Positions 6,933-40,078 of a DNA stretch of 64,000 nucleotides are shown one piece after another (position 1 is the stretch's first letter; every line of letters starts with the position of its first letter). The notes under the pieces are model-generated. The model saw nothing but the letters and a program-made list of their open reading frames with translations, was not told the DNA's origin and made no database searches. A program made the position numbers and the translations under genes. The DNA lies in the NCBI RefSeq assembly GCF_055900595.2, contig NZ_CM148325.1; one strand, written 5' to 3'.

Positions 6933-7084
6933 AGATAGTCGAATGGTGAGGAAAAGTCACTCGAATTACGTATGAGATGACGAATGCCACACTTTGCGTC
7001 TTATTCCTCCGACGTAGAGTCGTTTACGCAGCAAGCGCGGAGTATGTCATCAGGGTCAGAATTGAAATTGAGAGATGCCTGAAT

Positions 7085-7440
7085 AGCAAAAAAGCGCCTT
7101 TAGGGCGCTTTTTTTACATTGGTGGGTCGTGCAGGATGACTCGCTTCGCTCGCCCTTCGGGCCGTCGCCGCGAGCGGCTCCGTTGTTTCGCTACGCTCAA
7201 CTCGAACCTGCTGCAGGTTCGAATCTTTGAATATCCCAGATAGCAAAAAAGCGCCTTTAGGGCGCTTTTTTACATTGGTGGGTCGTGCAGGATGACTCGC
7301 TTCGCTCGCCCTTCGGGCCGTCGCCGCGAGCGGCTCCGTTGTTTCGCTACGCTCAACTCGAACCTGCTGCAGGTTCGAATCTTTGAATATCCCAGATAGC
7401 AAAAAAGCGCCTTTAGGGCGCTTTTTTTACATTGGTGGGT
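7085..7440. repeat. tandem repeat, about 157 bp unit, a little over two copies, downstream of lysQ
   Basis: The unit starts (agcaaaaaagcgcc...) at 7085, 7242 and 7398. Each unit holds an A-run/GC-hairpin/T-run (agcgcc-ttta-gggcgct) and a 17 nt copy of the tRNA-Lys 3' end (tggtgggtcgtgcagga). Confidence 0.7.
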
Positions 7441-7508
7441 CGTGCAGGATTCGAACCTGCGACCAATTGATTAAAAGTCAACTGCTCTACCAACTGAGCT
7501 AACGACCC
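7433..7508 (-). tRNA. lysQ: tRNA-Lys (UUU)
   Basis: Reverse complement matches the E. coli tRNA-Lys sequence through the CCA end; seventh gene of the operon. Confidence 0.95.
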
Positions 7509-7640
7509 CTTGCGGGATTATGCTGCTTTAATCATTCAGGATGGTGGGTCGTGCAGGATGACTCGACTTCGTCTCGCCCTTCGGGCCGTTGCTGACGCAA
7601 CGTTATCCTTCACGTTCTCTACCAGTAACCACCTTTAAAT

Positions 7641-7716
7641 TGGTGGGTCGTGCAGGATTCGAACCTGCGACCAATTGATTAAAAGTCAACTGCTCTACCA
7701 ACTGAGCTAACGACCC
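7641..7716 (-). tRNA. lysZ: tRNA-Lys (UUU)
   Basis: Identical tRNA-Lys sequence on the minus strand. Confidence 0.95.
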
Positions 7717-7862
7717 ATACGGGTGTTACCTGAATGATTTCTACTCGGAACCAATCTTTAAGATTAGTGGGTCGTGCAGGATGACTCGCTTCGCTCGCCC
7801 TACGGGCCGTTGCTGACGCATCGTTATCCTTCACGCTTAACATCTGAGTTTGATGTTAAAAC

Positions 7863-7938
7863 TGGTGGGTCGTGCAGGATTCGAACCTGCGACCAATTGA
7901 TTAAAAGTCAACTGCTCTACCAACTGAGCTAACGACCC
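7863..7938 (-). tRNA. lysY: tRNA-Lys (UUU)
   Basis: Identical tRNA-Lys sequence on the minus strand. Confidence 0.95.
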
Positions 7939-7941
7939 GAG

Positions 7942-8017
7942 TGGTGGGTGATGACGGGATCGAACCGCCGACCCCCTCCTTGTAAGGGAGGTGCTCTCCC
8001 AGCTGAGCTAATCACCC
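7942..8017 (-). tRNA. valZ: tRNA-Val (UAC)
   Basis: Reverse complement matches E. coli tRNA-Val(UAC) with CCA end. Confidence 0.95.
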
Positions 8018-8068
8018 GATACTGCGCTGGATACTACAAACTACTTCCACCGAACCCACCGTAATTAG

Positions 8069-8144
8069 TGGTGGGTCGTGCAGGATTCGAACCTGCGACC
8101 AATTGATTAAAAGTCAACTGCTCTACCAACTGAGCTAACGACCC
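8069..8144 (-). tRNA. lysW: tRNA-Lys (UUU)
   Basis: Identical tRNA-Lys sequence on the minus strand. Confidence 0.95.
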
Positions 8145-8146
8145 GG

Positions 8147-8222
8147 TGGTGGGTGATGACGGGATCGAACCGCCGACCCCCTCCTTGTAAGGGAGGTGCT
8201 CTCCCAGCTGAGCTAATCACCC
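8147..8222 (-). tRNA. valT: tRNA-Val (UAC)
   Basis: Identical tRNA-Val sequence on the minus strand. Confidence 0.95.
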
Positions 8223-8357
8223 GATACTGCGCTGGATACTACAACTAACTAGGTTAGTGGTGGGTCGTGCAGGATGACTCGACTTCGTCTCGCCCTTCGG
8301 GCCGTTGCTGACGCAACGTTATCCTTCACGTTTTACTACCGCTTCCACCTTAGCGAT

Positions 8358-8433
8358 TGGTGGGTCGTGCAGGATTCGAACCTGCGACCAATTGATTAAA
8401 AGTCAACTGCTCTACCAACTGAGCTAACGACCC
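8358..8433 (-). tRNA. lysT: tRNA-Lys (UUU)
   Basis: Identical tRNA-Lys sequence; first gene of the operon (transcribed from high to low coordinates). Confidence 0.95.
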
Positions 8434-8597: not shown

Positions 8598-9389
8598 TTA
8601 CATCGCGTTCAGACGTTTTTGTGCCTGTTTAGCGCCATCAGTACCAGGGTATTTACTGATAACCTGCTGGTATACGGCTTTCGCTTTTGCGGTGTCACCT
8701 TTGTCCTGCATGATGACGCCGACTTTAAACATCGCATCTGCAGCCTTCGGTGACTTCGGATAGTTTTTCACTACCGAAGCAAAATAATACGCCGCATCAT
8801 CTTTTTTACCCTTGTTGTAGTTTAACTGACCCAGCCAATAATTGGCGTTTGGCAGGTAAGTTGAATCAGGGTAATTTTTGATGAAATTCTGAAATGCCAC
8901 CATTGCGTCATCCTGGCGGGATTTATCCTGCACCAGCGCAATAGCTGCATTGTAATCCGTGTTTGCATCACCGCTTTTCACCGGCGCGCCAGCATTCGCA
9001 GTACCAGCATCAGCTGTCGGCGTCGTTGATGCCGCCGCACCGCTATGATCGCCGCTGGTTGATTGCGCCGCTGCACCACCGCTGCTGAGGCTATCGATCT
9101 GCAACAGGATCTGCTTTTGCCGCTCCACGACCTGATTCAGTTGATACTGATTTTCCTGAATCTGACCACGCAGGGAATCAATATCGGATTGATTATCAGA
9201 GAGTTGTTGCTGGAGTTGGGTTAAAAGCTGGCTGTGAGCATTAGAAATACGCTCAAGTTGAGTGACGCGGTCTTCGACCGAGCCTGAGCCGACACTACTG
9301 ATTGGTGCCTGAGCAAAAGCGGCCCAGGGGGCCGCTATACCAACCAGTAACGACAGACTCAATAGTTGATGTCTGAAGTTACTGCTCAT
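8598..9389 (-). CDS. cpoB: cell division coordinator CpoB (YbgF), TPR protein
   Basis: 263 aa ORF with signal peptide, coiled-coil Q-rich segment and TPR-like C-terminus; downstream of pal. Confidence 0.9.
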   Translation of the reverse strand: MSSNFRHQLLSLSLLVGIAAPWAAFAQAPISSVGSGSVEDRVTQLERISNAHSQLLTQLQQQLSDNQSDIDSLRGQIQENQYQLNQVVERQKQILLQIDSLSSGGAAAQSTSGDHSGAAASTTPTADAGTANAGAPVKSGDANTDYNAAIALVQDKSRQDDAMVAFQNFIKNYPDSTYLPNANYWLGQLNYNKGKKDDAAYYFASVVKNYPKSPKAADAMFKVGVIMQDKGDTAKAKAVYQQVISKYPGTDGAKQAQKRLNAM

Positions 9390-9398
9390 GCAATTCTC

Positions 9399-9944
<546 letters not shown>

Positions 9945-35507: not shown

Positions 35508-35676
35508 CCGTAGGCCTGATAAGACGCGCAAGCGTCGCATCAGGCATCGCTTGTCGGATGCGGCGCGAGCGCCTTATCCGACCTACATTGATGGTCCCCG
35601 TAGGCCTGATAAGACGCGTCAGCGTCGCATCAGGCTTCAATTGCCGGAGAAAGCGATAATGCCTCATCCGGTCTAC
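35508..35676. repeat. REP/BIME cluster in the sucB-sucC intergenic region
   Basis: Four imperfect palindromes of the gcctgataagacgcg...cgcatcaggc / gccggatgcggcg type. Confidence 0.6.
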
Positions 35677-39893: not shown

Positions 39894-40078
39894 CCTGCAT
39901 TTCTTTTGTAGGCCGGATAACGCATTCACGCCGCATCCGGCGCTGTTTGCCTGATGCGACGCTTGCGCGTCTTATCAGGCCTACGATTCCTGCATTTCTT
40001 TTGTAGGCCGGATAACGCATTCACGCCGCATCCGGCACTGTTTGCCTGATGCGACGCTTGCGCGTCTTATCAGGCCTG
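39894..40078. repeat. two tandem copies of a ~95 bp REP-containing unit (sucA-sdhB intergenic)
   Basis: tcctgcatttcttttgtaggccggataacgcattcacgccgcatccggc...gcctgatgcgacgcttgcgcgtcttatcaggcct occurs twice head-to-tail with single-base differences. Confidence 0.6.

Follow-up and report, generated by a model that had tools for sequence, protein, structure and literature searches.

The elements in the spacers of the lysT tRNA operon are almost certainly tRNA-linked repeats (TLRs; RtT in Rfam), a known family of enterobacterial stable-RNA operons. They are probably structured, individually dispensable passengers, which are co-transcribed with the tRNAs and then discarded, and whose clearest effect would be to make the locus recombinationally plastic. 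We give this reading a probability of roughly 0.72.

The lysT Locus and Its Repeats

ARAGORN detects seven tRNA genes on the minus strand between positions 7433 and 8433 of the window (the whole 64,000-nucleotide stretch that was analysed), in the order Lys, Val, Lys, Val, Lys, Lys, Lys. The operon is flanked by cpoB and nadA, its layout is the same as in K-12, and the closest database match to the locus (1.6 kb queried) is E. coli strain E200086, with 99.9% identity. All features described below lie on the minus strand. The tRNA-Lys(UUU) gene at the lysT position (8358–8433), which is also supported by the Rfam tRNA model (79.2 bits) and by synteny with K-12, is followed in the lysT–valT spacer by TLR unit 1 (100 nt, 8258–8357), made up of a core at 8276–8337 and an exact copy of the tRNA-Lys 3' end at 8258–8275. 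Next come tRNA-Val(UAC) at the valT position (8147–8222) and tRNA-Lys(UUU) at the lysW position (8069–8144). The lysW–valZ spacer (8018–8068) is an empty TLR site, with 51 nt in the window against 149 nt, including a TLR, in K-12. After tRNA-Val(UAC) at the valZ position (7942–8017) and tRNA-Lys(UUU) at the lysY position (7863–7938), unit 2 (98 nt, 7765–7862) occupies the lysY–lysZ spacer, with its core at 7783–7842 and its 3'-end copy at 7765–7782. Unit 3 (99 nt, 7542–7640; core 7560–7618; exact 3'-end copy 7542–7559) lies between the tRNA-Lys(UUU) genes at the lysZ (7641–7716) and lysQ (7433–7508) positions. Units 1–3 each begin at the nucleotide right after the CCA of a tRNA-Lys gene; their full extent as indel units (8258–8357, 7765–7862 and 7542–7640) was measured against strains that lack them.

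Two further units stand in tandem after lysQ. Unit 4 (7276–7432) consists of a terminator hairpin (7396–7427) and then a full-length TLR (7276–7401); it is recognized by repeat families D3 and D7 as well as by the Rfam model. Unit 5 (7120–7275; terminator hairpin 7240–7271, full-length TLR 7120–7245) is a perfect tandem copy of unit 4, so that a perfect 156-bp repeat spans 7110–7265 and 7266–7421 and the terminator is duplicated too. A third copy of the terminator hairpin (AAAAAAGCGCCCUAAAGGCGCUUUUUU, 7083–7114), found from its sequence and from repeat family D7, closes the array ahead of the nadA promoter region. These minus-strand hairpins (GCGCC-CUAAA-GGCGC-U6) were read from the sequence and from family D7, as the terminator scan did not list them. 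Units 1–3 lie within the lysT transcription unit, and the two terminal copies lie behind its first terminator; K-12 has one terminal copy where the window has two.

The repeats can be counted directly. The plus-strand 18-mer TGGTGGGTCGTGCAGGAT, which is the complement of the tRNA-Lys 3' end AUCCUGCACGACCCACCA, occurs ten times in the window at no more than one mismatch, with none expected by chance. Five occurrences are real tRNA-Lys 3' ends; the remaining five, at 7120, 7276, 7542, 7765 and 8258, are orphans, four of them exact (18/18) and one, at 7765, matching at 17/18 positions, where TAG replaces TGG and the transcript reads CUA where CCA is expected. The GC-rich core CTCGCCCTWCGGGCCGTYGC is found five times (7149, 7305, 7573, 7794 and 8289), again with none expected. 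A preliminary description of this DNA had reported three elements just 3' of tRNA-Lys genes, each with a copy of the tRNA 3' end followed by a shared GC-rich segment, and these counts bear out their presence, their position and their exact or near-exact 18-nt copies. Some details needed correction. The elements were said to begin with the tRNA-Lys 3' end, but since the operon is on the minus strand, each element ends with it in the RNA. The second element starts at 7765 rather than 7767, and the set of three was incomplete, as the two full-length copies after lysQ (7120–7245 and 7276–7401) belong to it as well.

Membership of the TLR Family

Rfam RtT (RF00391) has a gathering score of 45 bits, which each of the five copies surpasses, with 60.7 (unit 3), 60.6 (unit 1), 51 (unit 4), 51 (unit 5) and 49.6 bits (unit 2). 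For the three spacer copies, the full-length cmscan alignment consists of the T-arm of the real upstream tRNA-Lys and a 43-nt insertion, which together make up its 5' third, and then the element. In a near-identical strain, the label 'RtT sRNA' is given by PGAP to the two terminal copies alone; the spacer copies are probably omitted because their Rfam alignment overlaps tRNA genes.

TLRs were first described by Egan & Landy (1978) and catalogued by Rudd (1999), who, as summarised by Stenum et al. (2021, PMC8144298), counted 22 copies at ten K-12 loci. A locus holds between one and five of them, and every copy closes with the 3' end of the stable-RNA gene that lies upstream. The lysT elements satisfy every part of the definition as given in that summary: they lie in a stable-RNA operon, their last 18 nt match the 3' end of the upstream gene (18/18 positions in four copies, 17/18 in one; the definition gives 18–19 bp), and their internal sequence is shared with the tyrT, arg and rrn loci. 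The K-12 lysT operon itself carries four spacer copies and one terminal copy at positions that match those of the window. The K-12 TLRs and those of the window are alike in their site in a tRNA operon, in the last 18 nt being the 3' end of the upstream gene and in their positions within lysT; the window differs in having no lysW–valZ copy and two terminal copies instead of one, and there is no difference in kind. The preliminary description had itself named prior annotation of identical elements in K-12 as grounds against its reading, and the same elements are indeed present there, already catalogued as tRNA-linked repeats (PMC8144298).

Close relatives are the 178-bp repeats of the K-12 tyrT–tyrV region (RtT/rttR, with the tpr ORF and the rtT RNA, a discrete RNA released from the tyrT transcript), where four RtT copies score 133–138 bits, compared with 50–61 bits for the lysT copies. 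The lysT core can be aligned with the tyrT-operon repeats, and the core hairpins and the outer helix are common to both. Unlike tyrT RtT, the lysT spacer copies are a short form without the P2 hairpin and hairpin 0, and the 3' end is that of tRNA-Lys instead of tRNA-Tyr.

Presence and Absence Across Strains

Eight strains were compared, in which the operon has 5–7 tRNA genes and 0–6 TLRs. With four long inter-tRNA spacers of 135/51/146/132 nt, the window has two terminal copies and GD33 none. K-12 (135/149/146/132 nt) and O91:H21 (135/149/146/33 nt) have one terminal copy each; LR-28 (135/51/146/33 nt) has none, and neither does O157:H7 F8952, which has only six tRNAs and spacers of 35/51/146 nt. 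In APEC O1, where the spacers measure 35/51/48/33 nt, there is no TLR at all, terminal or internal, and the seven tRNA genes are intact. The eighth strain, ST3, has lost a Val–Lys pair. Removing from a long spacer the interval that runs from the real CCA to the pseudo-CCA yields exactly the short spacer, which is the pattern expected from recombination or slippage between 18-bp direct repeats; unit 1 is missing from APEC O1 as exactly such a unit.

A survey of 5,426 complete E. coli genomes was made with TLR-specific queries of 61–62 nt, at a coverage of at least 80% and at megablast sensitivity. TLR-1 was found in 3545/5426 genomes, the TLR-2 type in 4052/5426 and TLR-3 in 1798/5426, so that single copies are present in 33–75% of the genomes. 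For about 1,370–1,420 of the 5,426 genomes, not one of the three queries gave a match, and these TLRs thus appear, at this search sensitivity, to be lacking in about a quarter of E. coli strains. In Citrobacter and Pseudocitrobacter (L014, L087 and L114), too, TLR-1 occupies the corresponding spacer, so it has persisted since those genera split, and the empty sites of E. coli are for this reason most simply explained as losses.

Anatomy and Fold of the Repeat

A full-length copy starts with a 5' strand that is complementary both to the local T-arm and to the first bases of the acceptor, followed by a direct copy of the 5' strand of the T-stem with GGUUCGA. Four hairpins come next: hairpin 0 (as in CUCGAGC-GAAA-GCGAGAG; it contains tandem G.A or Watson–Crick pairs), hairpin 1 (CGUUGC-N3-6-GCAACG), hairpin 2 (CCC-GNA-GGG) and hairpin 3, the sequence of which is free. 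The copy ends with AUCC and the remainder of the tRNA 3' end. Read in this manner, the full-length unit looks like the 3' third of a tRNA with about 65 nt inserted in its T-loop. Spacer units 1–3 are the short form, which keeps the outer helix and hairpins 1–3. In the outer helix, CGUGAAGGAU and AUCCUGCACG are paired at 9/10 positions, and the terminal E. coli copies pair poorly in this region.

The fold was assessed on an unfitted MAFFT alignment of 55 cores, in which 95.3% of the cells are paired, against 86.3% in shuffles and 31–43% in slid controls. Double-sided changes number 87 compared with 24 in shuffles, and none of 500 shuffles matched the observed score. The covariation sits in hairpins 0 and 3; hairpins 1 and 2 are invariant, partly because the search pattern fixed both. 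On either side of hairpin 1, the purines alternate between A.G and G.A (70 versus 35 cases, with only seven exceptions). The 5' strand pairs best with the 3' end of its own class, both for Lys (8.5 of 10 positions, against 7.0–7.6) and for Tyr (9.5 against 7.1–8.1). G.U pairs are present on the transcribed strand of the cores, and shuffled sequences give less stable folds than the spacer copies do (z −2.5 to −3.1 for the copies). On these comparisons, the family is under structural constraint at the RNA level, with the strength of that statement limited by the pattern-seeded sampling and by the relatedness of the sequences. Such constraint counts against a purely neutral passenger.

Three other structures or products were considered and set aside. 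The full-length copies contain a hammerhead-like motif (GGAUGAG, a stem and CGA; compare CUGAUGAG...CGAAA), in which the invariant C3, U4 and A14 are missing, and no ribozyme family matched at E ≤ 10. The tyrT repeat has an annotated tpr ORF; no conserved frame of that type is expected in the Lys copies, because their hairpin 3 differs in length by 6, 8 or 9 nt. Finally, the cloverleaf-like MFE fold of units 1 and 3 contains a GGUGG/CCACC closing helix that is not relied on, as orthologues do not conserve GGUGG (L100, for example, has GGUUGG) and a different local hairpin is in competition with it.

A covarying fold, with its purine–purine covariation, its transcribed-strand G.U pairs and its stability, is what would be expected if the lysT TLRs were small regulatory RNAs that are released from the polycistron and report the rate of operon transcription to regulators such as Hfq or CsrA. 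The model for such a role is RrA, RrB and RrF, TLRs that lie between dual terminators in rrnA, rrnB and rrnD; they are transcribed and processed, and in vitro both Hfq and CsrA bind to them (PMC8144298). Their core is homologous to that of the lysT TLRs, as judged by matches to the covariance model R1 described below, and the terminator–TLR–terminator layout recurs in units 4 and 5 (hairpins 7396–7427, 7240–7271 and 7083–7114), although not in units 1–3. RrA, RrB and RrF, however, end with the 3' end of 5S rRNA and carry several CsrA-binding GGA motifs, whereas the 19 tRNA-operon TLRs are predicted non-binders, with scores below 0.01 as CsrA binders (PMC8144298). The lysT TLRs do not have several single-stranded GGA motifs for CsrA: there are only one or two GGA per unit, one of which is inside the outer helix. 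RtT-annotated RNAs of 166–170 nt, which judging by gene numbers are apparently interleaved with tRNA genes, were differentially expressed in K. pneumoniae RNA-seq (PMC4147364). In E. coli strains with active RNase P (rph-1, as well as rne-1 rph-1), on the other hand, 'surprisingly few' processing intermediates and no spacer-only species were seen (Agrawal, Mohanty and Kushner 2014, PMC4176162). The copies are, moreover, missing from 25–67% of E. coli genomes, and all of them from APEC O1. According to the summary in PMC8144298, the sole functional claim for a tRNA-linked copy (rtT, Bosl & Kersten 1991) was retracted in 1994. A regulatory RNA is rather unlikely, and any RNA function of the lysT TLRs would probably be at most modulatory.

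Transcribed spacers of tRNA operons can reportedly yield functional RNA, as in the case of 3'ETS-leuZ, a sponge RNA derived from a tRNA spacer that is said to pair with RyhB and RybB. The lysT TLRs resemble it in being RNA from the transcribed spacer or trailer of a tRNA operon. 3'ETS-leuZ is, however, a unique sequence and not a repeat, and it is without a copy of a tRNA 3' end; we know of no target for the lysT TLRs.

The Core Behind Other Stable RNAs

A fixed 20-nt core pattern was scanned in one genome per species, which gave at least 120 stretches, and the sequence after the core was compared with the local tRNAs. About 20 matches in GC-rich, non-gammaproteobacterial genomes had no upstream hairpin and were counted as chance. 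Among the matches listed, 116 distinct sequences keep the upstream hairpin, and their 3' ends are those of tRNA-Lys(UUU) in 36, tRNA-Tyr in 33, tRNA-Arg(ACG) in 17, 5S rRNA in seven, tRNA-Pro in five and tRNA-Ser in one. The remaining 17 of these 116 sequences are unclassified; they include two copies linked to tRNA-Arg(CCG), decayed 3' ends and forms without a matched stable-RNA 3' end (for example L009, L045, L092 and L115). The hosts among the matches listed comprise Enterobacterales, Gilliamella, Photobacterium, Marinobacterium, Thioalkalivibrio and others, a taxonomic picture that, like the invariance of hairpins 1 and 2, is biased in its ascertainment because it is drawn from the matches listed and from a fixed 20-nt pattern.

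The relationship was also examined with a covariance model (R1) for which only tRNA-linked cores were used, after removal of the flanks that derive from the tRNA. Over the 64-kb window, R1 finds the five lysT copies only, at 28–51 bits (43.1 for unit 1, 28.4 for unit 2, 41 for unit 3 and 51.3 for unit 4), and it scores 36.5–51 bits in the K-12 arg operon. It gives 52–58 bits for the 5S-linked copies, a part of which is by construction, because these copies were picked by the 20-nt core pattern. The T1–T2 spacer of K-12 rrnB was not chosen by the pattern, and R1 matches it with 28.2 bits (E 2.9e-5); this match is the published rrB TLR, for which Rfam RtT gives no match at E ≤ 1. Judging from these matches, the GC-rich part is not a decayed tRNA-Lys, as the preliminary description had supposed, since no tRNA model matches it and, across Gammaproteobacteria, the core follows tRNAs for Tyr, Arg, Pro and Ser as well as 5S rRNA.

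How the core came to lie behind so many genes invites the hypothesis that the core, now or formerly a mobile or copied module, entered the 3' part of stable-RNA genes, in tRNA genes between GGTTCGA and ATCC of the T-loop, and was rebuilt with the 3' end of its host, with tandem copies arising by recombination. This is compatible with the passenger reading, and we regard it as unlikely. It would account for the order of the full-length copies (the T-stem 5' strand with GGUUCGA, the core, then AUCC with the T-stem 3' strand, the acceptor and CCA), for the preceding strand complementary to the local T-arm, for the better pairing of the 5' strand with its own-class 3' end in Lys and Tyr, and for the fact that the core is linked, with matched ends, to no fewer than seven different stable RNAs. 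A whole tRNA-Tyr-like gene with the core inside its T-loop is present in Citrobacter, Kosakonia and Phytobacter (L015, L017, L065 and L095), but an interrupted gene of this form can equally come from deletion between two AAGGTTCGA repeats. Transposase, integrase and terminal inverted repeats are all absent from these units of only 98–157 nt, no fresh insertion was seen in E. coli, where all polymorphisms can be explained as deletions between direct repeats, and no mechanism is known.

The duplications that integrative elements leave at tRNA 3' ends provide a related comparison. As at such att sites, an intact tRNA is followed by an insert and then by a direct repeat of the 3' end, and the unit can be precisely deleted; direct repeats of the tRNA 3' end do flank the inserted DNA in lysT. 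The TLR insert is, in contrast, only 80–140 nt long and carries no integrase or cargo, and its core recurs behind many tRNAs and 5S rRNA, inside the T-loop sequence and not beside an intact att core. Between the repeats, no integrase, cargo or remnants of them were found, the units consisting of hairpins and a terminator only; at 98–157 nt, they are too short to hold such a gene.

A broader and equally unlikely proposal is that the TLR core, instead of being peculiar to enterobacteria, may be an ancient structured RNA module of Gammaproteobacteria, placed behind at least seven stable RNAs with the 3' end of each and a complementary 5' strand. Its reach could include Enterobacterales, Orbales, Vibrionales, Alteromonadales, Oceanospirillales and Chromatiales, with one match in Mariprofundus (Zetaproteobacteria).

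Processing and the Fate of the Spacers

The separation of the lysT operon has been studied by Agrawal, Mohanty and Kushner (2014, PMC4176162), who found that RNase P is both required and sufficient and proceeds from the 3' end. The part played by RNase E is very minor, its cuts in the long spacers being confined to conditions in which RNase P has been inactivated, and the authors proposed that the long tRNA-Lys 3' trailers, which are the TLRs, are trimmed by RNase II and PNPase (PMC4176162). Applied to the window, RNase P would cut 5' of each tRNA, starting from the 3' end of the transcript, and would leave each TLR as a long 3' trailer of a tRNA-Lys, which RNase II and PNPase would then remove. 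The trailer would be a compact core of several hairpins closed by a helix, the 3' strand of which is the 18-nt copy of the tRNA-Lys 3' end. At the level of the DNA, the direct repeats would allow the precise loss, duplication and shuffling of units together with adjacent tRNA genes. Given that the tRNA genes are intact in strains without TLRs, the repeats are probably dispensable for the production of tRNA.

The preliminary description had suggested that the elements act as processing sites for RNases or as structural spacers. As cis-acting signals or spacers that RNase E or RNase P would need, they are now very improbable, and this reading is already largely refuted. The 18-nt copy does recreate the sequence context of a genuine tRNA 3' end; recognition of the 5S-linked repeat by RNase E has been proposed because the 3' end of RrB maps 3 nt after the repeat (PMC8144298), and RNase E does cut inside the long lysT spacers once RNase P is inactive. 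Against this reading, RNase P alone makes the pre-tRNAs (PMC4176162). The valT–lysW and valZ–lysY pairs are separated with spacers of 2–3 nt, and natural operons with no element, or with any subset of them, retain all tRNA genes. A required function is unsupported because of the intact operons without TLRs, of which APEC O1 is the clearest case with all seven tRNA genes, the genome frequencies of 33–75% and the RNase P data.

Least credible of all is an origin of the entire element as a partial copy of tRNA-Lys that has decayed: its last 18 nt are identical to tRNA-Lys, and by eye a loose likeness to the tRNA-Lys 5' half can be seen at the 5' side of units 1 and 3 (GGUGG..UGGUAGAG), but no tRNA model matches the elements at E ≤ 10 (ARAGORN and Rfam tRNA both detect only the seven real genes), their GC-rich 60 nt are common to repeats behind unrelated tRNAs and 5S rRNA, and a model made from those cores alone recognizes the window copies.

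Implications

Taken by itself, the finding matters little, as these repeats are catalogued, are also present in K-12 and have no demonstrated function. The family was already known; what is added is small and leaves the picture unchanged, namely the map of presence and absence across strains and the occurrence of the core outside Enterobacterales. There are two points for annotation: PGAP labels the terminal copies only, and Rfam RtT misses the 5S-linked relatives. For the organism, the TLRs together with the identical tRNA-Lys genes make the lysT operon a hotspot of structural variation, which can confound assembly and counts of tRNA genes. The wider question, one for the family rather than for the window, is what keeps a structured and covarying core in place after so many genes for stable RNAs. 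If the core were indeed an ancient module, this would point to a mechanism of targeted copying at the 3' regions of stable RNAs or to a conserved role in the metabolism of their 3' ends, and the lysT copies would be its short form.

Detection of the rrnB and arg Operon Repeats

In K-12, the spacer between terminators T1 and T2 of rrnB (L124:439–512), the segment found in many cloning vectors, carries the hairpin series of a tRNA-linked repeat (TLR) together with a copy of the 5S rRNA 3′ end. This spacer is a TLR, namely the published rrB (PMC8144298). It was not matched by the Rfam RtT model at E ≤ 1; a model built from tRNA-linked cores detects it with 28.2 bits. The TLRs of the arg tRNA operon in the K-12 argQ-argZ-argY region (L125:1352–2101) were scored with both RtT and this same covariance model (R1), made from tRNA-linked cores only. 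RtT gave 41.6 (truncated), 31 and 22.8 bits, all below its gathering score of 45 bits, and these elements are therefore missed by standard annotation. With R1, they reached 36.5–51 bits.

Variation within the lysT Operon

The lysW-valZ spacer of the window (8018–8068) measures only 51 nt compared with 149 nt in K-12, where a TLR lies inside it, and the difference in length is exactly the unit running from the real CCA to the pseudo CCA. TLR unit 2 of the lysY-lysZ spacer (7765–7862, minus strand) has a pseudo 3′ end that reads CUA (7765–7767), whereas that of its K-12 counterpart is CCA. At the end of the operon, 3′ of lysQ, a terminator and a full-length TLR form a 156-bp unit that is perfectly duplicated in tandem (7110–7265 and 7266–7421, together 7110–7421). 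K-12 has a single such unit, and none is present in APEC O1, GD33, LR-28 or O157:H7 F8952.

Matches to other Rfam RNA families were also found in the window. A CpoB/ybgF ICR thermometer (RF02782) is strongly matched, with 142 bits, at 9360–9498 (minus strand), 5′ of cpoB. Three matches of 72–79 bits belong to naRNA4 (RF02564), a REP-derived family, at 35513–35583 (minus), 39911–39981 (plus) and 40006–40076 (plus).

Distribution and Unusual Forms

Among the matches listed, TLR/RtT-type elements that carry a matched tRNA 3′ end extend well beyond Enterobacterales and are present in Marinobacterium (L122, with RtT scores of up to 100.7 bits), Thioalkalivibrio (L121), Mariprofundus (L107), Photobacterium (L062, L105), Amphritea (L006) and Gilliamella (L007, L008, L040). 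Cores without a matched stable-RNA 3′ end were seen in the Alteromonadales Alishewanella (L009), Arsukibacterium (L092) and Aliiglaciecola (L045), and directly 5′ of a 5S gene in Brenneria (L115), a member of Enterobacterales.

In Citrobacter, Kosakonia and Phytobacter (L015:~9280–9450, L017, L065, L095), a complete tRNA-Tyr-like gene precedes the real tRNA-Tyr. Its T-loop is interrupted by a TLR core, lying between GGTTCGA and ATCC, its 3′ end is decayed and its anticodon loop is CUGCAAA, not CUGUAAA.

Covariation around the Hairpins

In the alignment of TLR cores, the base 5′ of CGUUGC (column 26) and that 3′ of GCAACG (column 46), which flank hairpin 1, covary: among the matches listed (n = 112 elements), A faces G in 70 and G faces A in 35, with seven exceptions. 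This looks like a swap of purine-purine pairs. At hairpins 0 and 3, Watson-Crick pairs substitute for tandem G·A pairs in some species among these matches.
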